In this document: piece by piece, positions 8,682-31,315 of the stretch
How positions within the stretch are numbered: the stretch's first letter is position 1
Layout of the letters: each line of letters begins with the position of its first letter
From: Candidatus Thorarchaeota archaeon
GTDB taxonomy: Archaea > Asgardarchaeota > Thorarchaeia > Thorarchaeales > Thorarchaeaceae
Assembly (NCBI GenBank): GCA_048882385.1
Contig: JBHLRQ010000022.1
Coordinates: 1,864 to 38,256, forward strand
Direction of reading: 5' to 3'
Length of the DNA: 36,393 nt
Program-made: the position numbers and the translations under genes
Notes under the pieces: model-generated
Databases searched by the model: none
Seen by the model: only the letters and a program-made list of their open reading frames with translations
Told to the model about the DNA's origin: nothing

Positions 8682-9980
8682 ATGATAATTCCAGGAACGA
8701 CTATCTCCTTAACACTGCTTCCAGCTTTCGTAGAAGTACGAGACAAAGGTGTTGTGAAAAAGAAAATCCCACTCAAAGAAAGATCTTTTGATGATGTTGC
8801 TTTAGAGCTCCAAAAATACCTACGTTATCTGGGAAAGCGTCTTGCTCCAGGAGTTCTTGAAGACGTATTAGATAAGATTGGATTGCCAAAAGCCCGACGT
8901 GTCCTTAAAGAGGAAGTGATTGCACCACCTGAACCTACACCAGAACCTGAACCGGATATTGTTACTCCAGAACCAGAACTTGTCAAGGTCGAAGCTGAAC
9001 CTAAGAAGAAAAGAAAAGGGTTGATAAAGAAGGAAGAAGAGCCGGCCGCAACTTTTGTGGAAGGACCAGGCGTAAGTGCTGATGAGAAAGGTTCAATCAG
9101 CGTTGAAGACTTTGATGATATTGCTGATGCGTTGCAAGTCGTAGAATCCTTGAGTGACTCATTCTTGACAGGGGAACCTCAGGAGAAACCAGTAACTGTG
9201 AAACCCAGACCTAAAATCAGCATTCATGTAAATGGTCAGGAAGAAATAGTAGCATCTCACAGGTCATATGCGCGAATTGCTGAAGCTGAAAGAATCGAGG
9301 AACCGGCTGAAGATGAGGAAGTAGAAGAGCCTGTTGAAGAATTTATTGAACTCGTAGCTGAAACTGTTGAGGAAGAAATAGAACCAACGCCACAAGTCAC
9401 ACCAACTCATCAGATTAAGCCCATTGTCGAATGTAAAGGACTCCTTCTTGGTGAAGATGGAGTAGGAAAGGAAACCCTGAAAGCTAAAGCAGAGATTGTT
9501 CCGATTTCCATTGGTGATGGAGAAGTGTCACCATATATTTTTGGGAAAGTCTTTGAGGGGGACAATCATCGAATCGATCTAAGAGTGTGGTCGTTCGACC
9601 TTGCAGTGAAGGCAAAGGTTCAACGAAAGCAATTCTACGAAGATTCTCAAATCATTATTATTATGTATGCAGCTTCAGATAGATGGAGTTTCGAGAGTAT
9701 CGATTTCTGGCTACGAGAGGCAACATTGTCATCTGAAGAAATGCCACCCCTAGTAATTGTAGCAAACAAGATTGATCTCAGAACTGATTCCTCAGAAGAT
9801 ACTGGTGATCAGCCAGTATCATATGACGAGGGATTCCAGCTTGCTGAGGAACTGGCGAAACGTTTCGGTTCTGATGAAAAGCTGCATCCTGTTGCGTTCA
9901 TCGAAACTTCCTGTGTATCAGGAGAAGGTATCGAAGATGTGTTTGAAACAGCAGTCCAACTCTTTGAAAACACTCTGTGA
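8682..9980 (+). CDS. Protein with N-terminal domain, acidic/Pro-rich linker and C-terminal Ras/Rab-like GTPase domain (degenerate)
   Basis: GEDGVGKE, DLRVW, FY..SQIIIIMY, SFESIDFWL, VIVANKIDL, FIETSC..GEGIEDVFE; GGTGGAG SD upstream. Confidence 0.88.
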   Translation: MIIPGTTISLTLLPAFVEVRDKGVVKKKIPLKERSFDDVALELQKYLRYLGKRLAPGVLEDVLDKIGLPKARRVLKEEVIAPPEPTPEPEPDIVTPEPELVKVEAEPKKKRKGLIKKEEEPAATFVEGPGVSADEKGSISVEDFDDIADALQVVESLSDSFLTGEPQEKPVTVKPRPKISIHVNGQEEIVASHRSYARIAEAERIEEPAEDEEVEEPVEEFIELVAETVEEEIEPTPQVTPTHQIKPIVECKGLLLGEDGVGKETLKAKAEIVPISIGDGEVSPYIFGKVFEGDNHRIDLRVWSFDLAVKAKVQRKQFYEDSQIIIIMYAASDRWSFESIDFWLREATLSSEEMPPLVIVANKIDLRTDSSEDTGDQPVSYDEGFQLAEELAKRFGSDEKLHPVAFIETSCVSGEGIEDVFETAVQLFENTL

Positions 9981-10103: not shown

Positions 10104-10421
10104 GTGGTGTTTACATCGATAGAGTATTGCGAAAGCTGTGGAAAGGAAGTAGATCCGATTCAACCGGCGAAGAATCTAGAGGATAACTTTGCAAATGATA
10201 CACGGAAGAACATGAGTATATGTACTGATTGTTTCAAAAAGAGATTCAAAATATCATCAAAGAAGAGAAGTGGGTATGGGGGAACAATCTACGAACTTGA
10301 GGAGAGATCGCCTCCTCGTTTTGGATTAGGAAGCCAATCTTTTAGCTGTCTCAAATGTAACTGGGTTGCTTGGAATGATGTTGGTCTTGAAGCCCACATG
10401 CGAAAAAGACATGCTAAGTAA
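10104..10421 (+). CDS. Small zinc-finger protein (CxxC...CxxC plus C-terminal C2H2)
   Basis: CESC...CTDC, and FSCLKC-x12-HMRKRH. Confidence 0.83.
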   Translation: MVFTSIEYCESCGKEVDPIQPAKNLEDNFANDTRKNMSICTDCFKKRFKISSKKRSGYGGTIYELEERSPPRFGLGSQSFSCLKCNWVAWNDVGLEAHMRKRHAK

Positions 10422-10422
10422 G

Positions 10423-11049
10423 TCACTTGTTCACAGCAAACTGGTTTCGCTCTTTTATTATTTCATGACCAGTGATTCTCAGACCATCAACATTTCGTGC
10501 AGCACTTTCTAGCATGCCCATTCTGTAGGTTGCAGTGCGAGGGCCAATAGCATGCAACCAATCAAGACTGGCCATATCAAGCCGATCATGCACAGAGAAG
10601 AACAGTTTGAGATCCGCCCCAATAGCTCTCGATCTCTCAAACATTGCTGCAGTGAGACCTAGACTAGGGGCAGCAAATCCCATCAATACCCAAATGAAGA
10701 TCAGTGGATCGTTCCCGAAATATTCAAAGAAAAACAGGAACCCTGTAAAGATTGGCCAAACCAAAGATAGAATCACAAGCACTAATGAGAGATGCTGTGT
10801 GATATCGTCACTACCAAGCCCCGCTATTCCAATCACATCCTGATCTGGAGGATAGAGATAGACTAGAACACCGCCGGATGTAATGCCAACGACCACAGCA
10901 GAGAATAGTATAAGGAGCATGAATGAGAAAGCTGATTGATCCCAAATTGCTGGGAAACTAATCATAGACTGCAGAACTAATGATAGAGTCATGACTAAAG
11001 CACCAACTGCAAATCCTTGCCAGCTGAAGAATTCGTATTTTCGTGCCAT
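10423..11049 (-). CDS. Membrane protein with about 4 TM helices and a C-terminal soluble domain
   Basis: Four hydrophobic stretches; start taken at ATG 11049 (MARKYEFF). Confidence 0.78.
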   Translation of the reverse strand: MARKYEFFSWQGFAVGALVMTLSLVLQSMISFPAIWDQSAFSFMLLILFSAVVVGITSGGVLVYLYPPDQDVIGIAGLGSDDITQHLSLVLVILSLVWPIFTGFLFFFEYFGNDPLIFIWVLMGFAAPSLGLTAAMFERSRAIGADLKLFFSVHDRLDMASLDWLHAIGPRTATYRMGMLESAARNVDGLRITGHEIIKERNQFAVNK

Positions 11050-11214
11050 TATCTCGTCAGACAATATCAAATACTCCTCTATGTATTCTATGAGCAGATA
11101 AGTCACAAGACGACTTAAAGTTTCTCATTACTTACTGCCCTTGACATGTTATTTTGACTAATGACTAGCTGCAACTACGCAAATTTGATACCATCCTTTT
11201 GTTCCACGCTTACT

Positions 11215-11232
11215 AGTACAATTCCTTGTACT
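11215..11232. promoter_or_regulatory. Palindrome AGTACAA-TTCC-TTGTACT upstream of the ABC operon
   Basis: Perfect 7-4-7 inverted repeat just upstream of a TATA-like TTTATTAG; function inferred. Confidence 0.4.
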
Positions 11233-11286
11233 TCGAAGGAGTAATTTATTAGCCCTCGAACACAGAAGCACCATAGCGCAAAGAAA

Positions 11287-12000
11287 GTGGAGTGGGTATC
11301 GCTGAATAGTGACGTAATTGTTGACCTCCAATCAGTATCGCGTGTATATGACATGGGAGAGATTGAAGTACATGCCCTACGGGGTGTTTCTCTTCAAATC
11401 AAGAGAGGCGCTGCGATTGGAATCATGGGACCCTCAGGTTCAGGAAAGACTACTCTATTGAACCTCATTGGAGCCCTCGATAGACCTACGCATGGAACTG
11501 TTGTTCTCGATAATGTTGACATCACACATATGAACGAGGGCGAGTTAACGAAGGTTAGAAGAAACAAAATCAGTTACGTGTTTCAGTTCTTTAACCTACT
11601 TCCTGTTCTTACAGCTTACGAAAATGTCGAGCTTCCCCTTCTGATCGGTGGTGTAGATGAGGATGCACGGAAAGAGCGTGTTGACCATCTACTCTCACTT
11701 GTTGGGTTGACAGAGCGAGCTGACCACCGTCCAGACGAACTCTCGGGTGGCGAACAACAACGCATTGCAATAGCAAGAGCACTTGCTAAACCAGCCCAAT
11801 CAACTAATAGTGTCATCGTTTTAGCTGATGAACCGACTGGAGACTTGGACTACAACACAGGACAAGAGATCTTGGAAATATTGGTTTCCTTGACAAAGGG
11901 AGAAGGGGGAACTCTAATCACAGTGACACATGATCCAGAAGTCGGAGAGAAGATGGATCGTGTATACAAGATGCGTGATGGTCAAATCGAGAATCCATGA
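11287..12000 (+). CDS. ABC transporter ATP-binding protein, LolD/MacB family
   Basis: GPSGSGKT, YVFQFFNL, LSGGEQQR, LADEPTGDLD, VTHD. Confidence 0.95.
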   Translation: MEWVSLNSDVIVDLQSVSRVYDMGEIEVHALRGVSLQIKRGAAIGIMGPSGSGKTTLLNLIGALDRPTHGTVVLDNVDITHMNEGELTKVRRNKISYVFQFFNLLPVLTAYENVELPLLIGGVDEDARKERVDHLLSLVGLTERADHRPDELSGGEQQRIAIARALAKPAQSTNSVIVLADEPTGDLDYNTGQEILEILVSLTKGEGGTLITVTHDPEVGEKMDRVYKMRDGQIENP

Positions 12001-12009
12001 TAGGGGCAA

Positions 12010-14820
12010 GTGTATATGGCAGCAGTCCCAGCAGGTTATGAAGCCTTTCATAGCATGAGAAGAAAAGGAGTCACATTACTTTGTTTCCTATTGGCTTCTT
12101 CTATGGCAATGGGAATAACGGTCTACGTTGACTCTTACTCGGTTCATGAATGGGATAGGAATTTAGACATCGGGCAGGTCGCTATGGTTGCGCATGGAGA
12201 GAATATTCAAAATTATGTCAATGGGATCAGAGCTATTGATGGCGTGACTAAGGCGGCTTCTATTCGAAGAGGTTCAGGGATTATTCAATATTATGTGAAT
12301 GAAACTTGGGGACAGTATCAGAATGATATCTGGGGAGATATTATTTCACCCGACCAAGATTTTCTGGATACATTCCCTGGATATATTACACTTGAAGAAG
12401 GGTCATTTCCAACCGCAAATGGCTCTCAAATCGCAATACTAGATGCTATGGCGAATGACTATGGTTTTGATGTGGGGGATGTGTTAAATTTCACTGCAGA
12501 TTGGAACGATGAATTTGAACTAATAGAGATAATTGGAATTTACAGCCAGGGAGAAGCTCGAGAGTACGATTACTACTATGGATATTACGAAACCATCGCA
12601 ATTGTTGTTCCATCCATAATTACATATGCTGAATATCAGGTCTACATCGATATTGATAGATCAAGACTGACAGCGTTTAATGCAGGTGGCTCACTCGCAT
12701 ATGCACAAGGAATTGATCAAGCAATTCGTGAACTTGACCCATTATATTCACCAGCAAATCCATGGAGAAGTACATTCTCTGTAAGGAATTACGTCACCAG
12801 AGGGATATTCTCATACATGAATTGGGTTTCAATCACGAGAATGACACAGCTCTTTCGGTCGGTAGCAATTATTCTGCTCATCCTTATGGTAACATTCCTA
12901 GCGATACGTCATAATGTGAATGAAAGAAGGTACGAATCAGGTGTCCTTTATTCAAGGGGAGCTTCAATGGGAGATCTTGATAAAATTGTAAATCGAGAAG
13001 TATTGGTCCTCTCGATATTATCATGTGTTCTCGGCATCCTTATCGGTGCAGGAATAAGTAGAATAGCCCTAGGTGCTACAGGCTTCTTTCAATTTGATTT
13101 TGGGTTGATGGTTTCAGAACCTTTCCTTGTAAGTATCGAGTCCTTGATAATGTCAGCTATTGTTGGCATTGCATTACCAATCCTAGCACTGGGAAGCTAT
13201 CGGATTGTGTATTCAACAAAGAAATCAGTTGATGAGGGACAAGGCAGATTGTCCAAAGTTGTTAAAGGTTTGAATTTTGTCAAATGGGATGTTCTCGTTG
13301 TAATTATAGCAGGACTCCTATTGATGGCTCTATTCTCAGGAGGACAAGAAGCCATGAACAATCCATTCATGGGAATGATTCTTCCTGTTGTACCATTACC
13401 GCTTTTCCTTGGAGTTGCAAGCTTGTCAATCAAAGGACTTAGAGCCGGAGCAAGCAGAATCTCACGTTTCATGGTAAGAATTGTTGGTCAGGTTCCTGCA
13501 GCAGTTGGTATTCGTCGAATTGGAAAAAGCGCATCCTCCGGAGGAGCAGCAGCAATGGTACTTGTTCTGGCAATATGTCTCTCTTGGAATAGTGCTATTG
13601 TTGATGCATCACTCCCAATTACAAAAACTTACCAAGCTCAGCTCAGTGTTGGAGCTGATATTACGTTTGGTCTTGATAGCGAAAAAATAGGACTCTGGGA
13701 TAATTTCACACTAAATGTTACATCGCATGAAAGTGTTGTCGGAGCAACATATGTTTCAGAAACAGGATTCTATCTTTCTAGTGGATATGGCGGATACAAC
13801 ACATTTCTTGCTGTGGATGCAAGAGAATATAGTAAGATTGGATACCACTATCTAGGAGAAAGGCTCAATGACTCAGAGATGGCGAGTTTAATGGAATCAT
13901 TGGCATCAGTCCTCGATGGAGCCATCATATCACAGGACATAGCAGATGAGTATGATCTTGAAGTTGGGGATATTATGCGTGCTTCTGATATCGATGAGGA
14001 GGCAGTGATATTCACATTTCGTATTATTGGGATTGTGCAGTCTCTCCCCGAGATGCCAGCAGAGTACTACGGGTGGTACTATGATTATTATTATTATCCT
14101 CCACCAATGAGTCCGTACTATTATGGGTATGGCATAGTGGGACAGGATAGAGTTATGATCAATAGAGATTACTTACAATCTCTAAAAGGTTCCCTAAATC
14201 AAACTAGCAATTACCTCTGTGTAAGCATTACAGAAAATGCCAACGGAACTCGAATTGGTGAAGACCTTCTTCAAGCAGGAGGTTATGAGGTATTAAATGA
14301 AGATGTTTGGGATGCTGTGTCTACCCAGACTGATGAATACTTGGCACAGGCTACATATCATATCGATAGATCAGTAGATACAATGCTGACAGTACTTACT
14401 GTTGGCACTATAATGGGTGCTTTTGCAATCTATGCGGTTGAAGGAGCTAGAGAAAGGAGGAGAGAGATAGCTCTACTCCGTTCAGCTGGAGCAGAAAATA
14501 GTCTAATTGTCAAATCACAGGGTGCGGAGATGTTAGTCATCATGTTGTTCAGTTTTGTTGTCTTGCTGGGATATTCCCCATTATTCTTGACAACAGCCAT
14601 CAGCTCAGCAGGCAGTTCTCTGTCATCATACTATGAATTGTACCCGATTGCTGTTTTTCCAGTTATTCCATGGATGACGATTATAACAGTGCTTGCCTTT
14701 TTCTTCGTATCAGTATTGATCTTCATAGGTTTTGTTGCCATCTATGGGTCCAGAATCAATCTGGCGCAAACATTGAATGCTACTTGGGCTGAAGCCTCAC
14801 CATATGGAGATGAACTCTAG
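12010..14820 (+). CDS. Large FtsX/MacB-like ABC permease, type A
   Basis: Duplicated TM-extracellular domain-3TM architecture; ERRYESGVLYSRGAS and ERRREIALLRSAGA motifs; GADI. Confidence 0.92.
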   Translation: MYMAAVPAGYEAFHSMRRKGVTLLCFLLASSMAMGITVYVDSYSVHEWDRNLDIGQVAMVAHGENIQNYVNGIRAIDGVTKAASIRRGSGIIQYYVNETWGQYQNDIWGDIISPDQDFLDTFPGYITLEEGSFPTANGSQIAILDAMANDYGFDVGDVLNFTADWNDEFELIEIIGIYSQGEAREYDYYYGYYETIAIVVPSIITYAEYQVYIDIDRSRLTAFNAGGSLAYAQGIDQAIRELDPLYSPANPWRSTFSVRNYVTRGIFSYMNWVSITRMTQLFRSVAIILLILMVTFLAIRHNVNERRYESGVLYSRGASMGDLDKIVNREVLVLSILSCVLGILIGAGISRIALGATGFFQFDFGLMVSEPFLVSIESLIMSAIVGIALPILALGSYRIVYSTKKSVDEGQGRLSKVVKGLNFVKWDVLVVIIAGLLLMALFSGGQEAMNNPFMGMILPVVPLPLFLGVASLSIKGLRAGASRISRFMVRIVGQVPAAVGIRRIGKSASSGGAAAMVLVLAICLSWNSAIVDASLPITKTYQAQLSVGADITFGLDSEKIGLWDNFTLNVTSHESVVGATYVSETGFYLSSGYGGYNTFLAVDAREYSKIGYHYLGERLNDSEMASLMESLASVLDGAIISQDIADEYDLEVGDIMRASDIDEEAVIFTFRIIGIVQSLPEMPAEYYGWYYDYYYYPPPMSPYYYGYGIVGQDRVMINRDYLQSLKGSLNQTSNYLCVSITENANGTRIGEDLLQAGGYEVLNEDVWDAVSTQTDEYLAQATYHIDRSVDTMLTVLTVGTIMGAFAIYAVEGARERRREIALLRSAGAENSLIVKSQGAEMLVIMLFSFVVLLGYSPLFLTTAISSAGSSLSSYYELYPIAVFPVIPWMTIITVLAFFFVSVLIFIGFVAIYGSRINLAQTLNATWAEASPYGDEL

Positions 14821-17658
14821 ATGTTTCTCTTCTCGCGCTTATCTGCCCGAACTCCAGAGGTTCTAGCAACATTACTCATATTTTCATTGTCAAGTGGAGT
14901 TCTCGGCGGAATTCTATTCTATATGGATTCAACAGCGCCTACCGTTCTTGGGGACATGACATCGCAAGTTCCTGTTGATATGGAGATTTCATTCAATTAC
15001 CCGTTCTACTACCAAAATACAACCACAGCTGATGATATCAGAACCATCGTCGAAGAACAAGAGATTGTACAATCGACAGAAATCGTTTCACAAGCACAGT
15101 TCTGGGATTACTGGGAAGCAGACTACCAATACAGTAGGAAAGCGTTTCTCGGAGTGGATAGTTCTGTCTTTGAAACTTTTCCAAAGGCAATAGAACTTGA
15201 TACGGGTTCATTGTCATACGATGACCAATCTTGTGTTGTTGAAAAATCAAGATTCGTTCGAGATGGTCTTCAGATTGGCGGCAACTATAGTCTTTCATTC
15301 TATATACGTGATGAGAATTGGACCGATGTACTTGTCGAGCAAACATTCGTTATCGTCGGAACATTTACGTCGAATATCTTCATGCATTCTCCAATTTGGG
15401 GTCAACCTGAAGTTACTTACTTACAGATGATCACAACTCCAGACGCATTAGAATCAGTTTTTGGGATAATGCCTCCGGATGAATGGGAAGGCTACACAAA
15501 AAGGATTTGGGTAGGATTCGATAAGCAAACCATTCTTGAAACCGACTCTCAAGCGATGCTCGAATCATTGGATTCTGTGAAAAAGCAAATCGAACAAGCA
15601 ACTCTGCCATATGCGATGATAGGCTACGATGGATTCGGACTTATCAATGCAGTCTATGAGTTTGCTGTATGGTCCACCAACGTAAGAGCGATTGCATTAG
15701 CATTTTCGTTACCTTCAGTATTCATGGGCTTGATGCTAATACAATACAATACAAAATTGGTTTCTGATGAACAAAGGCGAGATGTTGGAACTCTTAAAAC
15801 CCGTGGATCCTCAGGAATACAAGCTTTCAGTTGGGTTTTGAGTAGTGCTGTTGCTACAGGTGCTGTAGGAAGTCTGGGCGCAGTTGTGGTAGGTGCCGGA
15901 TCAGCATTGCTTTCTGGATCCGTTCGTGAATTATTTGTATTCAATTTGGAACAATTGGAAGGTTTCGCTCTACTCCTTCATCCAATAGCAGTATTGTTTG
16001 TCTTTCTATTCTCATTTGTGGCAGGAATTCTAATAGCTCTACCAGGAGCCATCAAAGCACTAATCATGACTCCGACTGAAGCCCATGGGATTCTAGAAGG
16101 AGAGATAATTACTGACTCTGAGAAAATGGGAAATCCATCCATTGACCTTCTAGCAGTTGGTGTATCGGGTTGGCTATTGATGCCCATGTTGGCATTCTTT
16201 GCTTTATTTGGTGTAGGAGCATTTGGAGTGGTAATCATCCCATTATTTGCGGTATTCCTATTTGCTTTTACACGTGGACTTTCAAGACCTACAGCTTTGA
16301 TTAAATCGAAACTACTATCCCTAGTACGAAGACCGTCATTAGTTGTTGGTTCCCGATTAATGTCCCGCACTGTTCTGATGTTCAAGAAATCACAAGCTAT
16401 GGGGACGATGTTCATCGCAATGGTGTTCTGTGCAGGTCTATTTGCTTCAATATCAGCTACAACTGGAGACACGCACATGAAACATCTATTTCAGTTTCAG
16501 ACCGGAGCAGATATTGCAGTAGATGTAGATGTATCACTCGAGAATGTAACAATTGATCTTGTGGATAATATAACAGCAGTTGATGGAGTGATGCAAGTAA
16601 GTCCAATGTTACAGACAACAGGATACATACAATATTGGAACTCCTATTACATTGGCATGGGAGAGAATGTTAACAGGAGCATAACAGTTTTTGGAGTAGA
16701 ATCTGAAACTTGGGCTTCAACCGCATTCTTCCTTGACTACTTCACAATGCTAGATTCACCTAGTAACTCAATTGCGAAATTAGCAGATTATTCCGACGAC
16801 AGCGCAAATATCATGTCAACGTTTAAGCCAATTTCAAACTACGTGTTAGATCAGATAACGCAAATACCTAGACCAGTCTATTCCAATGTTCTTGATCTTC
16901 AGATCTTTAGTGCTGATTGGTATAATCAAACGGAATGTTATATCATCGATCTCATGGTCAACACACAAGAATCGTCAATGACTAGTGCCCAGACATATTT
17001 ACCTGGTGAGCCAGACGCCACTGACTTCATAGTCATGGACCTGACATTGCTCCATTCGTGGATTAATTCGACAAAGGTGACAAAGTTCTATGTAGATTTG
17101 GAACCAGGTGCAAACTACACTCAAGCAATGATTGACATATACAATGTTGCACCGGATAGTTTCACTGATGTGGAAGCAGCAAATGAGTTCATTGACGAAG
17201 TGTTGGAATCGAGAGCGACACAATCGATCTACGGTGCATATACACTCAATGTGATTTTCTCCTTAATCTATTTGACCATTGGAATGATAATTGTGACTAT
17301 GGTCAGAGTTAGAGGGCTTCGAAGGCAGTTCTCTGTACTCAGAGCCTTAGGAACTGAAGCAAATTCAATAATCTTCGCAACACTTGCGGATACATCAATT
17401 GGATTGGTACTGGCTGCTTTAATTGGTGGGAGTATTGGAGTAGGTCTTGCATTCCTGCTTCAAAATGTACCATTACTTTACATGGGAATAACAACTTCGC
17501 AACTATGGGCAAGACTACCGGTCGCATTAATATTACCATGGACGCTAATATTGATAGTAATTGGAACAGCTGTGATAGTGTCCCTTATAGCGACCTATTT
17601 CGTTCTTTTGAGAACACTGAAACTCAATATTGCAGAGGAGATACAATACACGGAGTGA
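14821..17658 (+). CDS. Large FtsX/MacB-like ABC permease, type B
   Basis: EQRRDVGTLKTRGSS, RRQFSVLRALGT, TGADIAV. Confidence 0.92.
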   Translation: MFLFSRLSARTPEVLATLLIFSLSSGVLGGILFYMDSTAPTVLGDMTSQVPVDMEISFNYPFYYQNTTTADDIRTIVEEQEIVQSTEIVSQAQFWDYWEADYQYSRKAFLGVDSSVFETFPKAIELDTGSLSYDDQSCVVEKSRFVRDGLQIGGNYSLSFYIRDENWTDVLVEQTFVIVGTFTSNIFMHSPIWGQPEVTYLQMITTPDALESVFGIMPPDEWEGYTKRIWVGFDKQTILETDSQAMLESLDSVKKQIEQATLPYAMIGYDGFGLINAVYEFAVWSTNVRAIALAFSLPSVFMGLMLIQYNTKLVSDEQRRDVGTLKTRGSSGIQAFSWVLSSAVATGAVGSLGAVVVGAGSALLSGSVRELFVFNLEQLEGFALLLHPIAVLFVFLFSFVAGILIALPGAIKALIMTPTEAHGILEGEIITDSEKMGNPSIDLLAVGVSGWLLMPMLAFFALFGVGAFGVVIIPLFAVFLFAFTRGLSRPTALIKSKLLSLVRRPSLVVGSRLMSRTVLMFKKSQAMGTMFIAMVFCAGLFASISATTGDTHMKHLFQFQTGADIAVDVDVSLENVTIDLVDNITAVDGVMQVSPMLQTTGYIQYWNSYYIGMGENVNRSITVFGVESETWASTAFFLDYFTMLDSPSNSIAKLADYSDDSANIMSTFKPISNYVLDQITQIPRPVYSNVLDLQIFSADWYNQTECYIIDLMVNTQESSMTSAQTYLPGEPDATDFIVMDLTLLHSWINSTKVTKFYVDLEPGANYTQAMIDIYNVAPDSFTDVEAANEFIDEVLESRATQSIYGAYTLNVIFSLIYLTIGMIIVTMVRVRGLRRQFSVLRALGTEANSIIFATLADTSIGLVLAALIGGSIGVGLAFLLQNVPLLYMGITTSQLWARLPVALILPWTLILIVIGTAVIVSLIATYFVLLRTLKLNIAEEIQYTE

Positions 17659-18554
17659 CAACTATGACAGAGAATTTAGACGATATTGCTGAACAATACA
17701 AAATTGTGGTCCGAGACCTGATGAAGGTCTACAAACGCGGACAGAAAGAAGTCATTGCCTTGAGGGGTGTTGATTTCGAAGTTCGCCATGGTGAGTTTCT
17801 ATCCATCATTGGTCCGAGCGGAAGTGGCAAGTCAACACTCTTGAAGATGTTAGGAGCCTTGGATACACCAACCGCTGGAGCTGTGTTATATGATGGTCAT
17901 AGTGTCACGATGCTCGACGATAGAAGGGCCATGCTTTATAGAAGACAGAAGGTTGGATTCATCTGGCAGGTAGGCAACCTCGTACCTGGGCTCTCAGCGC
18001 TCAAGAATGTCACTCTTCCAATGAAGCTTGCTGGAGCTCCTACAAAGGTAGCCGAGAAGAGAGCACTAATGCTTTTGGACGCGATGGGACTCAGTCCCAG
18101 GATTGAACATAAACCAAATCAGATGTCTGGTGGAGAAAACCAACGAACTGCAATCTGCGTAGCATTGGCTAACAAACCCGAACTCGTTCTTGGTGATGAA
18201 ATCACTGGAGAGTTGGATAGTGAAACGACCGAGATGGTGATGCAATCATTGAAGATGACCAATGAAGAGTTTGGAACAACAGTAATCAATGTGACACATA
18301 ATCCATCTGTAACAAAGTATGCAGATCGTGTGTTAAGAATCAGGGATGGGCTCATTGAGGGACAGAAACATACGCTCTATGGCGATATTACTGAAGTGGA
18401 TGCCAAGGGGCGATTGGTGATTCCAGAAACTGTTAGACGCCTTGCTGGAATTAAAAAGCGAGTCGTCCTAAAGGCTACGTCTGAGGGTCTTTTGATTAGT
18501 CCACTTAGTACAGATGAAGAGAACAACAATTACAACAATGAAGCAATTCAGTAG
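17655..18554 (+). CDS. ABC ATP-binding protein (LolD/MacB family) with C-terminal AbrB/MraZ-like domain
   Basis: GPSGSGKS, GFIWQ, MSGGENQR, GDEITGELD, VTHN; tail TEVDAKGRLVIPETVRRLAGI; GTG 17655 overlaps the upstream TGA (alternative ATG 17664). Confidence 0.93.
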   Translation: MTTMTENLDDIAEQYKIVVRDLMKVYKRGQKEVIALRGVDFEVRHGEFLSIIGPSGSGKSTLLKMLGALDTPTAGAVLYDGHSVTMLDDRRAMLYRRQKVGFIWQVGNLVPGLSALKNVTLPMKLAGAPTKVAEKRALMLLDAMGLSPRIEHKPNQMSGGENQRTAICVALANKPELVLGDEITGELDSETTEMVMQSLKMTNEEFGTTVINVTHNPSVTKYADRVLRIRDGLIEGQKHTLYGDITEVDAKGRLVIPETVRRLAGIKKRVVLKATSEGLLISPLSTDEENNNYNNEAIQ

Positions 18555-18620
18555 AGCATCAAGAATTAATTGGAGAATCTCTATATTGAGGAAGAAAAGG
18601 CAACAATAGGTGATAGAACG

Positions 18621-18857
18621 ATGAGCAAACAATCACTGCCATGGTCTTATTATGCGGTTATTCTTACATTTGGAATCTTCTTTGCCACCTCGAATATCTA
18701 CATCTTCACGTTGTGGCTAGCACATCCACTCGCAAGTCCATTATGGCTCATAGGCGTTGCTATTGGAGCTATAGGATTAATCTACTCCATTAGTATGGTT
18801 CGAAATCACCAGAGAGAATTAATTGAGAAGAAGAAATTGGAAGAGGAAACCAAGTAG
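18621..18857 (+). CDS. Small 2-TM membrane protein with charged tail
   Basis: AGGTGA SD upstream of ATG 18621; two hydrophobic helices. Confidence 0.78.
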   Translation: MSKQSLPWSYYAVILTFGIFFATSNIYIFTLWLAHPLASPLWLIGVAIGAIGLIYSISMVRNHQRELIEKKKLEEETK

Positions 18858-18944
18858 CTGCCATTTCGGTGAAAAGCGTAATCAGTAAGAAATATCTCTC
18901 GGTGTTGTGCGCTTCCATTAGAATTACGAGGAAGAAGTGGATAG

Positions 18945-21719
18945 TTGATACAACAAGAAACCGTTAGTATAGGTAAGGTAAGGCGGAGAGGACTTACGCT
19001 GGCATGCTTTGTTCTTGCTATCACTCTTGTTGCTGGGATATCAATATACACAGATAGTCTTGCATCTCAACAGTGGGAGATCCACACCTCAATCGGTTCT
19101 GTAGCCATGAAAGTGAAGGGTGATAATGTTCATGTAATAATAGACGACATCTCTTCACTTCCTGAGATTACGAGTCTTAGCACAATTGAAAAAGCACGAG
19201 CGTTCCTAAGAATGGATCAAGATGAGATCTTTCAAGGCTCACCTGATAATCCATTGAATCCTGTCTTTCTAGCTCAAGGCTTTGCGTATTCCTTGAATAG
19301 TGAGTTTATCGAATCGTTTCCATACAAATTTGTTCTAGTTGTTGGACGATGGCCTGAAAATGGATCAGAAATTGCTATTGCATATAATGATGCCGCATAT
19401 TGGAATATTCCTATTGGTCGAATGATGAATTATACACACACTCTAAATGGAGAGAAAAGAACAGTCTTTGTTGTTGGAATATTTACACAGCCTGATTCTG
19501 ATGCCATTGAACTTTATGCAACAGATGCAGTTGCCATTGTCACTGAGGATGTTTTGAATCCTGAAGATAAATCAATTGAGATCTTCGCAAACATCGATAG
19601 AACTATCATAACACCTTTGGATGGCAGGGGAAGTTTAGCTAGACTTCAAGAACTTGATGATAAAATCAAGGCTCTTGATCCAGATTATTCTCCTACAACG
19701 CCATATTCAGAATATATTGTTGAGAATTATTTGGAGGTAGGAGTTAGAGAGTACATTGATTGGTTAAACACAGCAAGACTTCATCAAATCGGGAGATCTC
19801 AGGGAACGATACTTCTTGGGGGTATGTTGTTTCTCATGGCAGTTAGATTCAATACTGACGCCAGAAAAGATGAGTTACGACTTTGGTTCTCCCGAGGAGC
19901 ATCCAATAGAAGAATAACCACCTTAGTAGTGGGAGAGATTCTTGGCATTTCAATATTATCGTGTGTCTTTGCCTTATTTTTTGGAATTGTAGGAAGTCGC
20001 CTTGCTTACGCATCAACTGATTTTCTCCACTTTGAATCAAATTTGCTGAGCTCCTCAAGTTTCATGATAACTTATGACACACTGTTCTTTTTGCTTGCAA
20101 TCAGTATTGTAACACCTCTGATAGTCTATGCCATAAATCAGAGAACGAAAAGTGAAGAAATAATTGAAGAGCAAGAACATGGAAGACTAGCTAGATTCAC
20201 TAGAGCGCTAAGGATGATTCGCTGGGATGCAGCCATTCTTGTGACTGCGCTCCTATTTCTGATCGCTCTTAATATTGGTGGAAACACTGTTCGAAATATT
20301 CCATCACTGATGTTCATATTCTACTATTTACCAATTCCACTCTTTTTGGGAATAGCAAGCCTGCTAAGCAAAATCCTTCTACAAGCATCAAATGTAATCT
20401 CGAAAATCTATTCTAGAATGAATCGCCAAACAGTATCATATTTGGGAATAAGAAGAATTGGAAAAAGGGTGAGATATGCTGCACCGGTAATTCTTGTGAT
20501 TGGAATAACTATGTCAGTTTCTTTGAATTCTATGATTATTGCTGAGTCAATTCCACAAACCCAGATCAATCATTCAAGGTTCTTAATCGGAGCTGATGTG
20601 ACATTTCATCTCAATATAGACTCCAATGAGTATTGGCCCACAATATTTGAGTGGACTGCAAATCATACTAATGTTGAAAGCATAAGTATGGCATCAGTCG
20701 GAACTTTGACTTTTTCCGAAGGAAGTTCAGGCGAGGTAGAATTCATTGCAATCAACCCTAGCGAATTTATCAAGGTTGGCTTCAGTTATTTAGGAATAGG
20801 TCTTGAAGAATCGTCACTATCAATGATTCTAAATGATCTGGAGTTAAACACAGAAGGTGCAATTATTTCTCAGGATGTTGCTAACGAATATGATGTGCAT
20901 ATTGGTGACTCAATTCGTGCCTTTACTATTAATGAAATTGAGGATATCACAGAGTTTAACGTCATTGGAATTGTTCCTGCTCTTTCAGCACCCAACACAA
21001 TAAATGCGATGTTAACTGACCAAGGCGAAGCCCTCGGTTTAGGAAAGGTTTGGGTAAACAGTGAATATTTGTCTTCAATCATCGACCTTAACGGTACATC
21101 AGAGAATTTTCTGTGCGTGAGGACAAAACCGGGTTATAATGGAACAGCTCTGGGAGAAGATTTTGAACTGGAATTTGGTCCATCAGTTCTAGAGGCGGAT
21201 GGTTGGTCTGCAGTTGAATTTGAGGTTGATGCGTTAGTTTCGCAATCCCAATATCAAATTGATAGAGCAATTGATTCCATGCTCGTAATGATTTCAATAT
21301 TTTCAGTTGTATTAGCACTAACGCTATATAGAATTCAAGGTAACTTGCACGGAAAAAGGGAAAATGCAATTCTTAGAACACTAGGAGCAGGAAAAAGGAA
21401 TATAATCTCAACACAAGTTCATGAGCTTCTTGGAATTGTTATATTGACATTTTTCATTCTTGCCATCTTTGGTCCAATTCTAGTAATCAATTCAGTTGAA
21501 GCTGGTATGACAACGTATAGCATCTGGTCTTTTGAATTTCCAATAGGACCCCAAATCTCTATAAACTCAAACATGTTGGGATTCAGTCTTGGATATTTCA
21601 TAATTATTCCAATTGGTTTACTTCTTCTTCTATATGCAAGACCTTCACATGAAAATATGACTCAAGCTTTAGATGCAGGGTGGTCTAAACGAAACTTAGA
21701 TTGGGAGGAGTGGAGTTAG
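18945..21719 (+). CDS. Large FtsX/MacB-like ABC permease, type A paralog
   Basis: RRRGLTLACFVLA..GISIYTDS matches RRKGVTLLCFLLA..GITVYVDS of 12010; RWD, GIRRIGK and YQIDRAIDSML are shared; start uncertain (TTG). Confidence 0.9.
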   Translation: MIQQETVSIGKVRRRGLTLACFVLAITLVAGISIYTDSLASQQWEIHTSIGSVAMKVKGDNVHVIIDDISSLPEITSLSTIEKARAFLRMDQDEIFQGSPDNPLNPVFLAQGFAYSLNSEFIESFPYKFVLVVGRWPENGSEIAIAYNDAAYWNIPIGRMMNYTHTLNGEKRTVFVVGIFTQPDSDAIELYATDAVAIVTEDVLNPEDKSIEIFANIDRTIITPLDGRGSLARLQELDDKIKALDPDYSPTTPYSEYIVENYLEVGVREYIDWLNTARLHQIGRSQGTILLGGMLFLMAVRFNTDARKDELRLWFSRGASNRRITTLVVGEILGISILSCVFALFFGIVGSRLAYASTDFLHFESNLLSSSSFMITYDTLFFLLAISIVTPLIVYAINQRTKSEEIIEEQEHGRLARFTRALRMIRWDAAILVTALLFLIALNIGGNTVRNIPSLMFIFYYLPIPLFLGIASLLSKILLQASNVISKIYSRMNRQTVSYLGIRRIGKRVRYAAPVILVIGITMSVSLNSMIIAESIPQTQINHSRFLIGADVTFHLNIDSNEYWPTIFEWTANHTNVESISMASVGTLTFSEGSSGEVEFIAINPSEFIKVGFSYLGIGLEESSLSMILNDLELNTEGAIISQDVANEYDVHIGDSIRAFTINEIEDITEFNVIGIVPALSAPNTINAMLTDQGEALGLGKVWVNSEYLSSIIDLNGTSENFLCVRTKPGYNGTALGEDFELEFGPSVLEADGWSAVEFEVDALVSQSQYQIDRAIDSMLVMISIFSVVLALTLYRIQGNLHGKRENAILRTLGAGKRNIISTQVHELLGIVILTFFILAIFGPILVINSVEAGMTTYSIWSFEFPIGPQISINSNMLGFSLGYFIIIPIGLLLLLYARPSHENMTQALDAGWSKRNLDWEEWS

Positions 21720-24575
21720 ATGTTTCTTGTTTCTAGAGCTAAGTCACAAGCGCCTGAGATATTAGTCGCTTTCCTAGTTTTTTCATTATCTACAGGTGTA
21801 GTTGGGGGAGTTCTACTCTATCTAGATAGTGTTGGACCTGAGGTTTTGAATGAAATGTCAGTTGATATGCCAATTGGGATGCAGATCCACTTCCGTCCGG
21901 AGTTCTATCAGCAGAATGTGACTACATATAGTGTCATTGAGGAGCGGGTGGCTGCACAAGAACAAGCAGAATCAGTTGAAGGTGTTTCAATTATTGAGAT
22001 TTACGATGAAGAAGTAGAGGATTCCAAATATTCTAGAAATGTAATAATGGGAGTCGAGTCAAGCTTTTTTGAAACATTTTCAGATATTGTTTACACCCCA
22101 TCTGGTACAGCAATTTTGAATGAATCAATTTGCTATATCCAAAGAAACCTACTTTTTGAATTGGGACTTAATATTGGAAGCAACTACACGATTTCTGTGC
22201 CAACAATAGATGAAAACAAGAATCCGATACGAATCAATTCTACCCTTACGGTAGCTGGTGTGTTTGAATCTAATCTCTTTCAAAGGAGGATAAGTTATGA
22301 TCAACCATCTTTCTCTTCGCTTTTTGTAATTACAGCAAGACCTACTCTGCAGACTTATTTTGGTGAGCTTGATCATGCTGGAACCAACAGTTTGCTTGAC
22401 AGAATCTGGGTGAATTTTGATACAAACAAACTCACTCTTAACGATCCTACATCTATGCTTAGTTCTTTGAGGCAAATTGAACGACAGCTAGAGCAGGATA
22501 TTCTACCATATGCTTCAGTAGTTGAGTATGATCTGATTAGTGTAGCTTACCAATATTCCACCTGGGCTACAAGTATGAGAATAATAACGATGGCATTTGC
22601 TGTCCCATCTGTCATTATGGGACTAATGCTGATTCAGTACAATTCAAACCTATTGGCAGATGAAAGGAGAAGAAATGTTGGTGCTCTAAAAACTCGCGGA
22701 GCCACTGGCCGACAAACTATGTACTGGGTTTTGTCGATGTCGATCTTTAACGGAATTGTGGGGAGTTTCGGAGCGATTCTTACAGGAGCAGCGGCTGCTT
22801 TCATGGCTGGTGGAGTGAGAGAGCTGATGACATTCAATCTTTCTCAGATACTGAGCTTCGCAATTAATCTGAAGCTTGAATCAATTGCCATTTTGTTTTC
22901 ATTCTCATTCATATTGGGTTTGATTGTTTCCTTACCTGGAACAATCAATGCGTTTTTGATGTCTCCAGCAGATGCACACAGTGTTATTGAAAGAAAAGAG
23001 CTGACTCCAAAAGGAAGCTTGGGAAACCCTGTTATCTACGCATTGATGCTTAGTATTTCAGGAGTGCTTCTCATTCCGCTATTGGGAGCGATGGAATCCT
23101 TGGGAAGTTTTACCCTAGGTTCTACATTTCTTGGACTGACAGTGATTCTTCTATTAGCAATCTTTATTCTAGGGTTTGTTCTTCTCCTTGCGCAACCAGC
23201 GGCGTCGCTGAAATCTCGAATTCTACTGCGAATTAATAAACAGTCACTAGTTGTTGGAACTCGTGTTGTTGGAAACTCATCACGAATGTTCAGAAGGAGT
23301 GAAGCGATGGCTATCATGTTCATTTCACTCGTCTTCGCCGCAGGAATATTCTCCTCATTGGCGGCTGCTACAGGAAGTAACCATATGAAAGAGCTATTTT
23401 TGTTTGAAACTGGTGCAGATATTGTAATTGATGTAAAGCCAGGATTAACAAATCTGACTTTGGATTTCATTCCCGCAATTGAATCAATAGATGGTGTTTC
23501 AAAAGCAAGTGGGATGATTAAGACTTCGGCATATGTCACATTCTACAGTGACTGGTATGGATACTATCTATTTTGGAACAGATCAATCGAGTTGTATGGA
23601 GTTCAACCAAGCGAGTGGCTTGAATCAGCATTTATCCTTCCATACTTCACATATTATCACGATACAGCATCTTCAATATTGGAATTAGAAGACGAAGAAA
23701 CGAATGTCATTACAAACTTCCAACCTCTTCTTGGCTATGAGATTGATTCACTAGGCCAGCAGGTAGTCAGCTATTCAGACTATATTTCGTTGGAGCTTGT
23801 GGGTCCAACTGAAAAACACTATCTCAACTGTACTATCGTTGATATAATGTCAAATAATCCAAGGGGATTTGAGCCAATAGGCTTTTCACGCTCAGAATAC
23901 ATTGGAGCTTCATATATTCCTGGAGAAGAAGGGAATCATCCTTTCATCATGCTTAACATTGAAAATGTTCACAACTACCTCAATGTTTCATATGTAACTA
24001 GGTTTTATGTAGATCTAAATGAGGGAGTAAATTATACTCGAGTGATTGATGAATTGACAGCTCTCGCTCCTGGCAGTTTTGAGAGTGTGGACTCACCATA
24101 TTTTGGAATTGATGCAATCCGTGACTCAAGAGCAGGTCAAACAATTCATGGAGCATATACACTCAATGTCTTGTTCTCAATTCTCTATCTTACTGCCGGG
24201 GTTACTTTGGTGACAACAATAAAGATTAGAACAATGAGCAAACACTTCTCTCTCCTTCGTGCGCTTGGAACTGATGCTCGTTCTATTATCAGCTCAGTTC
24301 TCATAGATTCTTCATTAAGTGTAATTCTTGGTGGGATAATTGGAGGCCTTACGGGAATTGTACTCACCTTTCTTACATTTCAAATGCCACTGAATTATCT
24401 TGGGCTTTCAAATGAGGTAACATGGGACTATCTCCCACTGGTACTATCTATTCCTGTGCCTTTGCTCATTGCTTTGACTACAATTGCCATTGTATCTTCT
24501 CTGTTAATCAGCTTGGTCATAATTCGGAGGAAACTTGAAACAAATATCGCTGATGATATCCAACATTCAGAATGA
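21720..24575 (+). CDS. Large FtsX/MacB-like ABC permease, type B paralog
   Basis: MFLVSR..PEIL..FSLSTGVVGG matches 14821; ERRRNVGALKTRGA; GAYTLNV; C-terminus NIADDIQHSE. Confidence 0.92.
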   Translation: MFLVSRAKSQAPEILVAFLVFSLSTGVVGGVLLYLDSVGPEVLNEMSVDMPIGMQIHFRPEFYQQNVTTYSVIEERVAAQEQAESVEGVSIIEIYDEEVEDSKYSRNVIMGVESSFFETFSDIVYTPSGTAILNESICYIQRNLLFELGLNIGSNYTISVPTIDENKNPIRINSTLTVAGVFESNLFQRRISYDQPSFSSLFVITARPTLQTYFGELDHAGTNSLLDRIWVNFDTNKLTLNDPTSMLSSLRQIERQLEQDILPYASVVEYDLISVAYQYSTWATSMRIITMAFAVPSVIMGLMLIQYNSNLLADERRRNVGALKTRGATGRQTMYWVLSMSIFNGIVGSFGAILTGAAAAFMAGGVRELMTFNLSQILSFAINLKLESIAILFSFSFILGLIVSLPGTINAFLMSPADAHSVIERKELTPKGSLGNPVIYALMLSISGVLLIPLLGAMESLGSFTLGSTFLGLTVILLLAIFILGFVLLLAQPAASLKSRILLRINKQSLVVGTRVVGNSSRMFRRSEAMAIMFISLVFAAGIFSSLAAATGSNHMKELFLFETGADIVIDVKPGLTNLTLDFIPAIESIDGVSKASGMIKTSAYVTFYSDWYGYYLFWNRSIELYGVQPSEWLESAFILPYFTYYHDTASSILELEDEETNVITNFQPLLGYEIDSLGQQVVSYSDYISLELVGPTEKHYLNCTIVDIMSNNPRGFEPIGFSRSEYIGASYIPGEEGNHPFIMLNIENVHNYLNVSYVTRFYVDLNEGVNYTRVIDELTALAPGSFESVDSPYFGIDAIRDSRAGQTIHGAYTLNVLFSILYLTAGVTLVTTIKIRTMSKHFSLLRALGTDARSIISSVLIDSSLSVILGGIIGGLTGIVLTFLTFQMPLNYLGLSNEVTWDYLPLVLSIPVPLLIALTTIAIVSSLLISLVIIRRKLETNIADDIQHSE

Positions 24576-30487: not shown

Positions 30488-31315
30488 TTATGAGCGCTCA
30501 TCTAAGAAAGAGAATTGCATATTCGGATAATCAATGATTGTTTCAAAGTTCTTCAAGAAATCATAGCCTATTATCCCATTTTCGATGAGACATCCTTTGG
30601 GTGAAACTTTACTAAGATCTATGACAACAATCTGGGAATTTGTAATCTGCGCTGGACCCACGGAAAGTGATTCCAGTCCAGCCATTTTTAATTCCACATC
30701 ACCGCCTATACCTCTAGCGATTCCTTGAACAGCCTGAGCTTCAATACCAACTTTCTCAGCAAGTCCGGGCGTCATGACAGTATTTCCAGCTCCGGTATCA
30801 ACAACAAAATTATACGGTCCCTTACCATTGATATGAACTGGAACACCAACCAGATGGGAGTCGTTGATGTATTCAAAAGGACTCCATGCGATGCCGTTGC
30901 CATTAGAATTAGAATCACCTTTCTTGAGTTTGAACTTCTGCTTATTGTAACTGAGAGAAATCGTGCAATGCTTCAAAGTCGTGTATCCTAATACTCCTTC
31001 ACGACCTCCGGAAGTTTTCAATAGCGCATTAACATCTAATACATAGACTTCATCTTTCTCAAACTCAAGTGGTCCTACACCAATAGCTACATCCGCATAC
31101 TTTGTTGGAACACTACCCCCAATTCCATGTGCTTCCTTTTTGCTACCCATATGTGTAACAATTCCTAAGCTCTCTGCAAGTTGGGGAGTAAGAGTTGTCA
31201 CAGAAGCACCAGTATCCAAGTCGAAGGTGAATGGTCCTTGACCATTAACCTTGACTGGAACTTTTACGAGACGTGTACCAAAGTCGATTTTCACCTCAAC
31301 CTCCATTGTAGCCAT
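30488..31315 (-). CDS. Tandem two-domain retropepsin-like aspartyl protease
   Basis: FDLDTGAS...GIGG...GVLG and FVVDTGAG...GIGG...GIIG; GAGG upstream of ATG. Confidence 0.92.
   Translation of the reverse strand: MATMEVEVKIDFGTRLVKVPVKVNGQGPFTFDLDTGASVTTLTPQLAESLGIVTHMGSKKEAHGIGGSVPTKYADVAIGVGPLEFEKDEVYVLDVNALLKTSGGREGVLGYTTLKHCTISLSYNKQKFKLKKGDSNSNGNGIAWSPFEYINDSHLVGVPVHINGKGPYNFVVDTGAGNTVMTPGLAEKVGIEAQAVQGIARGIGGDVELKMAGLESLSVGPAQITNSQIVVIDLSKVSPKGCLIENGIIGYDFLKNFETIIDYPNMQFSFLDERS

Follow-up and report, generated by a model that had tools for sequence, protein, structure and literature searches.

ATP-binding cassette (ABC) machines of type VII, the MacB/FtsX superfamily, have been characterized only in bacteria; there they act in cleaving peptidoglycan, in sorting lipoproteins to an outer membrane, in TolC-dependent efflux and in lipid extraction. 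According to the YbbAP–TesA paper, the permease YbbP of the Escherichia coli lipid-extraction complex has ten transmembrane (TM) helices, with periplasmic domains between helices 1 and 2 and helices 7 and 8, helices 5 and 6 linking duplicated four-helix units, and one coupling helix each between helices 2 and 3 and helices 8 and 9; two YbbA ATPase subunits sit on one YbbP. A 2018 review of the MacB family gives the same topology permutations. Here we analyse a 36,393-nucleotide (nt) stretch of DNA (hereafter the window) from Candidatus Thorarchaeota archaeon (assembly GCA_048882385.1, contig JBHLRQ010000022.1, positions 1,864–38,256 of the forward strand), in which seven consecutive genes, named ATP1, A, B, ATP2, sTM, A′ and B′, form what sequence comparison identifies as a vertically inherited Thorarchaeota operon for a type VII (MacB/FtsX-superfamily) ABC machine. 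A prediction made earlier from the DNA letters alone (the original prediction) had proposed a type VII locus; the present analysis confirms it and places the locus in an Asgard archaeon, specifically in Thorarchaeota, B having a 100% identical database protein named as Candidatus Thorarchaeota archaeon. We hold the assignment of family and architecture with high confidence.

The operon can be set beside several bacterial systems. YbbAP(–TesA) (Protein Data Bank (PDB) entries 9GE6, 9GE7 and 9GE8) is the best fold match for A and B, with which it shares ten TM helices, large outer domains between TM1 and TM2 and between TM7 and TM8, a TM5–TM6 linker and an ATPase on a separate polypeptide. However, identity in the fold alignment is 11–12%, the Thorarchaeota permeases are about 140 residues longer, and the Thorarchaeota system has obligate A–B pairs, two ATPases, one of them with an AbrB-like tail, and a two-TM subunit; its operon contains no TesA-like secreted hydrolase, and its host is an archaeon without an outer membrane. 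The antimicrobial-peptide modules BceAB-S and VraDEH of Firmicutes likewise combine a fused ten-TM permease with a separate ATPase. Whereas BceB has one extracellular domain, A, B, A′ and B′ each have two, and no histidine kinase or response regulator was found among the 29 open reading frames (ORFs) of the window that were scanned. LolCDE resembles the locus in that both ATPases score best on LolD, both halves of A and of B resemble the LolE and LolC chains in fold, and two non-identical permease genes lie beside an ATPase gene; however, LolC and LolE are four-TM halves of one transporter, whereas the Thorarchaeota genes are already fused pairs, the LolD scores fall below the equivalog cut-off, and no LolA/LolB-like gene is present. 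With MacAB–TolC the locus shares an FtsX-type module carrying a MacB-like outer domain (the MacB_PCD match in A′ and the fold matches), but it has no fused ATPase, MacA adaptor or TolC, and its permeases are fused double modules. Members of the ADOP family (TIGR03434) of Acidobacteria, which are duplicated FtsX permeases of about 800 residues, are often encoded without an adjacent ATPase, as are A′ and B′; however, A′ is not a member (14.5 bits against a cut-off of 622.3), and the Thorarchaeota A–B pairs are attached to an ATPase-bearing core.

The literature searched, judged largely by titles and abstracts, describes no archaeal type VII or FtsX–MacB system, Thorarchaeota and Asgard archaea included, in line with the original prediction, which knew of no characterized archaeal example; nor does it describe a type VII system with linked engines or an AbrB-type ATPase tail. 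Family, fold and general mechanism are already known. That literature does not describe the occurrence in archaea, two complete fused permeases that form an obligate pair and go with two ATPases, an ATPase with an AbrB-type tail, or a dedicated two-TM subunit combined with a movable second permease pair. The fixed pair, the AbrB-tailed ATPase and the two-TM subunit set the locus apart from the designs of YbbAP and BceAB in ways that can be tested. Furthermore, the Thorarchaeota version is kept throughout a class of Asgard archaea that lack the envelope parts served by the bacterial machines, and its cargo must be something else at the archaeal cell surface.

Architecture of the permeases

All four permeases match the Pfam family FtsX (E = 1.7e-16, 1.1e-06, 1.1e-07 and 6.3e-10 for A, B, A′ and B′, respectively), along two stretches in A and B, and A′ alone also matches MacB_PCD (E = 1e-07, residues 517–738). 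Their hydropathy profiles follow a single pattern: one helix, about 240 polar residues, three helices, two helices, one helix, about 250 polar residues and three helices. We modelled A and B with AlphaFold2 (AF2), each from an input alignment of its own family (55 sequences for A, 53 for B). The models have mean predicted local distance difference test (pLDDT) scores of 82.7 and 83.0 and predicted template modelling (pTM) scores of 0.79 and 0.76, respectively, and each consists of ten long helices and two β-rich domains, located between TM1 and TM2 and between TM7 and TM8. The four TM helices per permease that had been proposed are thus replaced by ten, on the hydropathy of all four proteins and the models of A and B.

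A Foldseek search of the PDB returned YbbP (chains 9ge6_A and 9ge7_A) at the top for both models, with E values of 2e-18 to 9e-16 over 964–978 columns and template modelling scores by target of 0.45–0.53; the individual E values are 2e-18 (9ge6_A) and 5e-18 (9ge7_A) for A, and 9.8e-18 at best for B. BceB was the second-best fold match, followed by LolE and MacB, with FtsX-type chains ranking lower; the Foldseek probability is 1.00 for YbbP, BceB, LolE and MacB. The isolated periplasmic domains of MacB and LolE also match the A model in fold, and the two outer domains may be of the Porter plus Sabre type. Pfam, AF2 and Foldseek agree on an FtsX-type module of four helices, the first and second of which flank an extracytoplasmic domain, and hydropathy, AF2 and the full-length alignment to 9ge6_A and 9ge7_A agree on ten TM helices comprising two such modules and two linker helices. 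Together, the models indicate that each giant permease is a YbbP-like fused ten-TM pseudo-dimer, in the order FtsX module, two linker helices, FtsX module. This likeness does not extend to orthology: on the NCBIfam equivalog model for YbbP (NF041854), only A′ among the four permeases gives a match, and its 22.1 bits are far below the cut-off of 999.

This architecture changes how the A–B pair is understood. In the original prediction, A and B together made up a single transporter, one half each, in the manner of LolC and LolE, but each chain is already a fused double-FtsX unit. Because a single YbbP carries two ATPase copies, A and B are, by analogy, probably two engines rather than two halves of one. 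Both halves of each permease keep a conserved coupling-helix motif, and the A–B pair would therefore need four ATPase subunits.

The extracellular domains, whose boundaries were set from the AF2 models and hydropathy, were compared with shuffled sequences for their content of N-glycosylation sequons. The A domains contain 8 sequons against 2.56 expected and the B domains 9 against 3.23 (0.002 of shuffles reach the observed number in each case), and those of B′ contain 9 against 4.35 (0.019 of shuffles). The excess in A′, 6 against 4.04, is not significant (0.20 of shuffles), so that the claim of sequon-rich outer domains in all four permeases holds for A, B and B′ and fails for A′. Five sequons in the A family (55 rows) and eight in the B family (53 rows) are kept in at least half of the rows. 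The pattern fits outward-facing domains in an organism that presumably N-glycosylates its surface proteins.

ATPases, AbrB-like tail and small membrane protein

Two ATPases had been predicted, and both are intact and LolD/MacB-like. ATP1 and ATP2 match Pfam ABC_tran (E = 2.3e-33 and 2.4e-28, respectively) and are 41% identical to each other by blastp. For both, the best NCBIfam models are LolD, MacB, DarD, YbbA and FtsE, all below their equivalog cut-offs; on LolD (TIGR02211), ATP1 scores 219.5 and ATP2 214.1 bits against a cut-off of 307.75. In ATP1, the Walker A motif, Q-loop, signature, Walker B motif with the catalytic glutamate, and H-loop are conserved in 34 aligned sequences. In ATP2, the catalytic motifs are all invariant in 34 aligned homologues, and mean column identity is 81%. 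The two proteins are thus LolD/MacB/FtsE-type subunits with intact catalytic motifs; judged by these residues, both look competent, and neither ATP site appears degenerate.

The C-terminal tail of ATP2 starts about six residues past the ATPase core and is almost invariant in the 34 homologues. In isolation, it scores 25.8 bits on Pfam MraZ (cut-off 23) and 19.5 bits on MazE_antitoxin (cut-off 24.7), two homologous tails falling just under the MraZ cut-off (20.9 and 20.5 bits) and the MazE_antitoxin scores spanning 19.5–21.5 bits overall. The best PDB sequence matches of the tail are weak: an uncharacterized 92-residue protein, 2glw_A (E = 0.12), and AbrB chains (E = 0.18). The AbrB domain assigned to ATP2 by the original prediction therefore stands at the superfamily level, through the above-cut-off MraZ match of the isolated tail. 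A search with the tail only recovered 188 proteins, of which all those with names are labelled Thorarchaeota or Promethearchaeota.

The small membrane protein sTM is present in 36 of the 41 loci that have ATP2 and at least 1200 nt downstream of it, and has 11 invariant columns in 40 sequences. It matches no Pfam family above cut-off, and a look-alike search of the Atlas gave a best score of 0.88, below the level that counts as more than a lead. A match of the sTM ORF to UbiA (19.2 bits against a Pfam cut-off of 34.2) was regarded as chance. A review describes VraH as a small membrane protein with a charged C terminus that binds the ATPase of the ten-TM VraDE; sTM may be a functional parallel to VraH, without a detectable sequence relation to any named family. 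A complex prediction of B with the sTM hairpin (residues 24–78) scored 0.00 in two runs without controls and counts neither way.

Conserved pairing and distribution

We surveyed one genome per species using the B-family alignment as the query, which yielded 68 loci from about 59 assemblies, counted by their titles. The survey was seeded with B-family motifs and covers B-family relatives; none of the 68 loci has a bacterial title. Among at least 120 relatives of B, all the named ones are archaeal and nearly all are from Thorarchaeota. Co-occurrence of A and B had been set beforehand as one of the points on which the original prediction would stand or fall, and of the 71 B-type genes whose upstream sequence is available, all 71 directly follow an A-type gene. 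In the other direction, B lies directly downstream of 71 of the 72 A-type genes, a count biased by the loci having been found through B. ATP1 comes before 39 of these 71 pairs, ATP2 comes after 41, and 33 are flanked by the two, with about 19 cut by contig ends on either side; where upstream sequence exists, ATP1 directly precedes the A–B pair in 39 of 52 cases. The conserved core consists of ATP1, A, B, ATP2 with its AbrB-like tail, and the 78-residue two-TM protein. The pairwise distances of A and B across 34 modules correlate closely (r = 0.97, partial r = 0.85 by mirror-tree), which is weak evidence because the rows are related. We consider it likely that A and B work as a matched pair.

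Beyond the core, the loci differ. The gene after sTM is that for asparaginyl-tRNA synthetase (AsnRS) in 19 loci, an A′–B′ pair in 10 and another gene in 7, and in 3 the contig ends there. The A′–B′ pair thus follows sTM in 10 of 36 testable loci, nine identified by script and the tenth being L018, whose ORF call overlaps sTM. Other arrangements comprise an extra permease pair upstream of ATP1 (L032), an extra pair followed by its own second ATP2 (L047), an extra pair between ATP2 and sTM (L059), and pairs without an ATPase within several kilobases (L065 and L038). The syntenic flank contains, upstream, genes for a phosphoribosyltransferase, a Ras-like GTPase, a zinc-ribbon protein and a four-TM protein and, downstream, those for AsnRS and a surface protein; the locus is a stable part of the chromosome.

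The sole A-type gene without a B partner, L062:3644-6400, lies between the four-TM gene and ATP1 and is sister to the A′ clade (support 98). In two loci the permease genes are split into two or three ORFs (A′ and B′ at L034:9539-15141, A and B at L067:7177-12825), which may reflect frameshift, decay or sequencing error.

A B-family profile searched against 1.84 billion representatives gave 1928 matches at E ≤ 0.001. The best 150 of these 1928 matches include 22 full-length members of the B family, none scoring below 860 bits, after which the scores drop to 226 bits; the lower-scoring matches are other proteins of about 900–1000 residues that score alike on the A and B profiles. In the Atlas, a look-alike cluster of 139 members has Bathyarchaeota as its commonest phylum. 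On these low-scoring matches and the Bathyarchaeota-rich cluster, fused double-FtsX permeases of this size appear to be widespread, whereas the A and B subfamilies are, by sequence, specific to Thorarchaeota. No longer form of B representing an A–B fusion was found at E ≤ 0.001 among 8000 candidates, which is weak evidence. Among distant relatives, the 1968-residue protein P0251 (84 bits) contains two ten-TM units in one chain, the halves being 31% identical, and hints that a pair of such permeases can work next to each other. P0263 (1880 residues) was rejected as an A–B fusion, as only its C-terminal part is B-like and its N-terminal part is a different multi-TM region.

Origin of the second permease pair

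The two permease pairs are related gene by gene. By blastp, A and A′ are 30.6% identical over 931 columns (E = 1e-147) and B and B′ 39.2% identical over 961 columns (E = 0), whereas identity between A and B is only about 20% (E = 1e-06). The predicted relationships of A to A′ and of B to B′ are thus confirmed, as is the existence of two paralogous pairs of which the second has no adjacent ATPase gene. We built quick trees with local support values and midpoint rooting. In the B-family FastTree tree (53 rows), B′ falls in an 11-row clade that, together with three extra copies, forms a 14-row group split from the 39 core-B rows with support 99. In the A-family tree (55 rows), nine A′ rows form one clade, also with support 99, from the same loci as the B′ clade. 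Because A′ and B′ each fall into one clade and both clades come from the same loci, the A′–B′ pair was probably duplicated once, as a pair, before these lineages diverged; the trees indicate that it is an old duplicate that has since been lost or moved many times.

End branches are longer for A′ (0.82) and B′ (0.42) than for A (0.26) and B (0.17), and by this measure the second pair seems to evolve faster. The G+C content across A′–B′ (window positions 19001–24000) is 0.375–0.399, below the 0.401–0.440 of the core operon.

The coupling-helix motifs are nearly the same in B and B′, and A and A′ likewise keep theirs. Furthermore, pairs without an adjacent ATPase recur: six of those after sTM, where the next gene can be evaluated, and those of L065, L038 and L059. 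Given the kept coupling-helix motifs and these recurrent ATPase-less pairs, a borrowing of the core ATPases by A′ and B′ fits, and such sharing is plausible on sequence grounds.

Proposed assembly and mechanism

We favour, with a probability of about 0.5, an explanation in which each ten-TM permease would on its own make up the whole membrane part and use its two coupling helices to dock two ATPase subunits, by analogy with YbbA2:YbbP1 and BceA2:BceB1. The operon would encode two engines that always travel together. In the preferred assembly, A would combine with a homodimer of ATP1, and B with one of ATP2 as well as with sTM, whereas A′ and B′ would serve as alternative permease cartridges on ATP1 and ATP2, respectively. 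Gene adjacency and the homodimer precedent of YbbAP and of BceAB, a fused ten-TM relative that carries an ATPase homodimer, argue for this allocation (A:ATP1×2 and B:ATP2×2), which we put forward tentatively, at slightly less than even odds. An AbrB-type fold closes its barrel only with two chains; because such a half-barrel needs a second copy, pairing of the tails would be easiest on the two-fold axis of one ATPase dimer, and the half-barrels of two ATP2 chains may pair beneath that dimer.

ATP binding would close the ATPase dimer and zip the stalk helices together, moving the extracellular domains (mechanotransmission). Movement of the outer domains would extract hydrophobic or lipid-anchored cargo from the outer leaflet, with no solute carried across the membrane. 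Among the 29 ORFs of the window, six of which match no Pfam family, the scan found no solute-binding, HlyD/MacA or TolC (OEP) family, in accord with the predicted lack of a solute-binding protein, MacA-like adaptor and TolC, and no kinase or response-regulator family. Extraction is favoured because the window lacks an adaptor and a duct as well as any binding protein, sensor kinase or enzyme partner, and because the nearest folds are those of YbbP, LolE and BceB; by this analogy an extractor, rather than an efflux pump or a controller of enzymes, is our provisional choice, just short of an even chance. The envelope-protein or lipid handling put forward in the original prediction is likewise hypothetical.

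Several observations weigh against this explanation. The assembly, the protein–protein contacts and the cargo are all inferred by analogy, and sequence similarity to the solved relatives is marginal (B profile to MacB, E = 7e-05; A profile to YbbP, E = 2.6e-04). In the mirror-tree analysis, the gene-adjacent combinations have partial correlations of 0.095 (ATP1–A) and 0.074 (B–ATP2), against 0.211 for ATP1–B and 0.238 for A–ATP2; as a guide to ATPase–permease partners these correlations proved not to be discriminating. Two ATPase genes beside asymmetric permeases fit an ATP1–ATP2 heterodimer equally well. The Pfam scan found no hydrolase, chaperone or cargo gene inside the operon, and the two α/β hydrolases of the window, 5–9 kb from the operon, have no signal peptide by eye; with no partner or cargo gene in the operon, the extractor role draws on analogy only. 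The flanking genes are all syntenic too, so that the conserved order is in part plain vertical inheritance and, taken by itself, makes functional linkage look stronger than it is. Five of the 41 testable loci (L029, L050, L052, L054 and L060) lack sTM, also when searched by hidden Markov model (HMM), and sTM is therefore not indispensable. Finally, the extra pair of L047 has its own ATP2, and extra pairs are thus not always borrowers.

A different allocation of the ATPases, in which every permease docks ATP1 on one FtsX half and ATP2 on the other, and the ATP2 half-barrel pairs with that of its neighbour to form an A–B super-complex with four ATPase subunits, is in our estimation unlikely, at perhaps one chance in four. 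Both ATPase genes occur in all 33 fully evaluable core modules, the coupling helices differ alike in A and B (an R-G-A-S type in the N-terminal half versus x-G-A/T in the C-terminal half), the partial correlations do not favour the gene-adjacent pairs, and such an assembly would account for A and B always occurring together; P0251, in fusing two ten-TM units, makes a side-by-side placement possible. However, the solved fused ten-TM relatives have ATPase homodimers (YbbAP), and the link of about six residues between ATP2 core and tail suits pairing on a two-fold axis better than a bridge between complexes. The fusion argument is limited as well: P0251 is a single distant representative at 84 bits, and an A–B fusion was not found among close relatives, although this is weak evidence. 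More doubtful still is the bolder proposal that the core is one obligate super-complex of two YbbP-like engines, with four FtsX modules and four ATPase sites, held together by the AbrB-like half-barrels and sTM and engaged in housekeeping envelope building, with A′/B′ as a swappable cartridge on the same motors. In that proposal, the putative AbrB-like barrel might in addition signal the activity of the transporter to DNA or to some other partner in the cytoplasm. If the locus does encode one linked machine, it would represent a new way to build ABC engines and offer a way into how the envelope is made in the archaea most closely related to eukaryotes; if it encodes two ordinary YbbAP-like extractors, it would be a routine lineage-specific expansion.

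The function may also differ from extraction. The operon could confer resistance, removing or neutralizing antimicrobial peptides or toxic amphiphiles at the outer face as do BceAB/VraDEH or adaptor-free MacB-like pumps, with paralogous pairs widening the substrate range. Relatives annotated as 'ABC-type antimicrobial peptide transport system permease', the rank of BceB as second-best fold match, the likeness of sTM to VraH in size and charged tail, and a paralogue expansion with variable copy number typical of resistance genes all point this way. However, a single syntenic chromosomal position across 68 loci and about 59 genomes looks like housekeeping inheritance, the window has no two-component sensor, adaptor or bacteriocin gene, each chain has two extracellular domains against one in BceB, and the 81% per-column conservation of ATP2 is unusually tight for an accessory resistance gene; we regard a resistance role as improbable, at around one chance in five. 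A regulator without any transport activity, whose ATP-driven outer-domain movement activates a surface enzyme or remodels the surface layer, for example in growth or division, would have its model in FtsEX, a member of the same superfamily that is reported to work in this way. The large conserved extracellular domains could serve as docking platforms, and a sequon-rich anchored surface protein (window positions 26134–28047, minus strand) is kept nearby in 29 loci; however, that gene lies on the other strand, beyond AsnRS, in a wholly syntenic region, the operon itself contains no candidate partner, and the fold ranking puts FtsX-type chains below YbbP, BceB, LolE and MacB, which leaves such a regulator the least probable of these functions by a clear distance.

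Gene junctions and coordinates

ORF calling showed that seven consecutive ORFs on the plus strand fill window positions 11287–24575 (Table 1), and their junctions abut or overlap, in agreement with the locus as originally predicted. ATP1 and A are nine bases apart. The ATG of B directly follows the TAG of A, as the ATG of B′ does the TAG of A′, and the GTG start candidate of ATP2 at 17655 overlaps the TGA of B as GTGA. Two starts required correction. A 349-residue ORF for ATP2 (17505–18554) is an overcall: the database copy has 296 residues and the homologues 289–303, and the start is therefore likeliest the GTG at 17655, or the ATG at 17664. For sTM, the predicted ORF (18570–18857) begins too early, as an alignment of 31 sequences places the conserved start at the ATG at 18621.

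Table 1. Features of the Thorarchaeota type VII locus, in order along the plus strand (window positions).
Feature	Positions	Strand	Description
Presumed promoter region	11107..11286		180-nt gap between the divergent four-TM gene and ATP1; presumed from its position
ATP1	11287..12000	+	237-residue ABC ATPase, LolD/MacB-like, without extra domain
A	12010..14820	+	936-residue fused double-FtsX permease, ten TM, two extracellular domains (about 52–260 and 548–780)
B	14821..17658	+	945-residue fused double-FtsX permease, architecture as A
ATP2	17655..18554	+	ABC ATPase, 299 residues from GTG 17655 (296 from ATG 17664)
AbrB/MraZ/MazE-like (swapped-hairpin) domain	18381..18509	+	C terminus of ATP2, about 43 residues, one copy
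sTM	18621..18857	+	78 residues, two TM helices, short conserved outer loop, charged C-terminal tail
A′	18945..21719	+	924-residue permease, paralogue of A
B′	21720..24575	+	951-residue permease, paralogue of B; convergent AsnRS gene next

Neighbouring genes

The gene at 10423–11106 (minus strand), divergent from ATP1 across the 180-nt gap, encodes a 227-residue protein with about four hydrophobic segments and a soluble tail of about 70 residues, and has no Pfam or NCBIfam match. A relative is present in 37 of the 68 loci, just upstream of ATP1 in those inspected; the protein could belong to the system, although the whole region is syntenic. Upstream of it, the gene at 10104–10421 (plus strand) encodes a 105-residue cysteine-rich protein that has no Pfam match and is kept in 33 loci. 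Two CxxC pairs can be recognized by eye, as can, near the C terminus, a C-x2-C-x12-H-x4-H arrangement like that of a C2H2 zinc finger. The gene at 8682–9980 (plus strand), found in 33 loci, encodes a Ras/Roc/Arf-like GTPase domain (residues about 250–430) after a 250-residue extension without a family match; Ras-like small GTPases are a typical Asgard feature. At the start of the window, the gene at 55–1998 (plus strand) encodes a protein of 647 residues, nearly all of it hydrophobic, for which many membrane segments are predicted and which belongs to no Pfam family.

Downstream, the 637-residue protein encoded at 26134–28047 (minus strand) begins with a signal-like segment, abounds in N-X-S/T sites and ends in a hydrophobic anchor followed by basic residues. 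Its Pfam matches to CarboxypepD_reg, SdrD_B and SpaA are sub-threshold or marginal, that to SpaA lying just over the cut-off. From these sequence features it looks like a surface glycoprotein, and it is kept next to AsnRS in 29 loci. Further along, the gene at 30488–31315 (minus strand) encodes a 275-residue protein, conserved in 10 loci, that Asp_protease_2 matches along two stretches (E = 2e-34) and that contains two retropepsin-like aspartyl protease domains in tandem.

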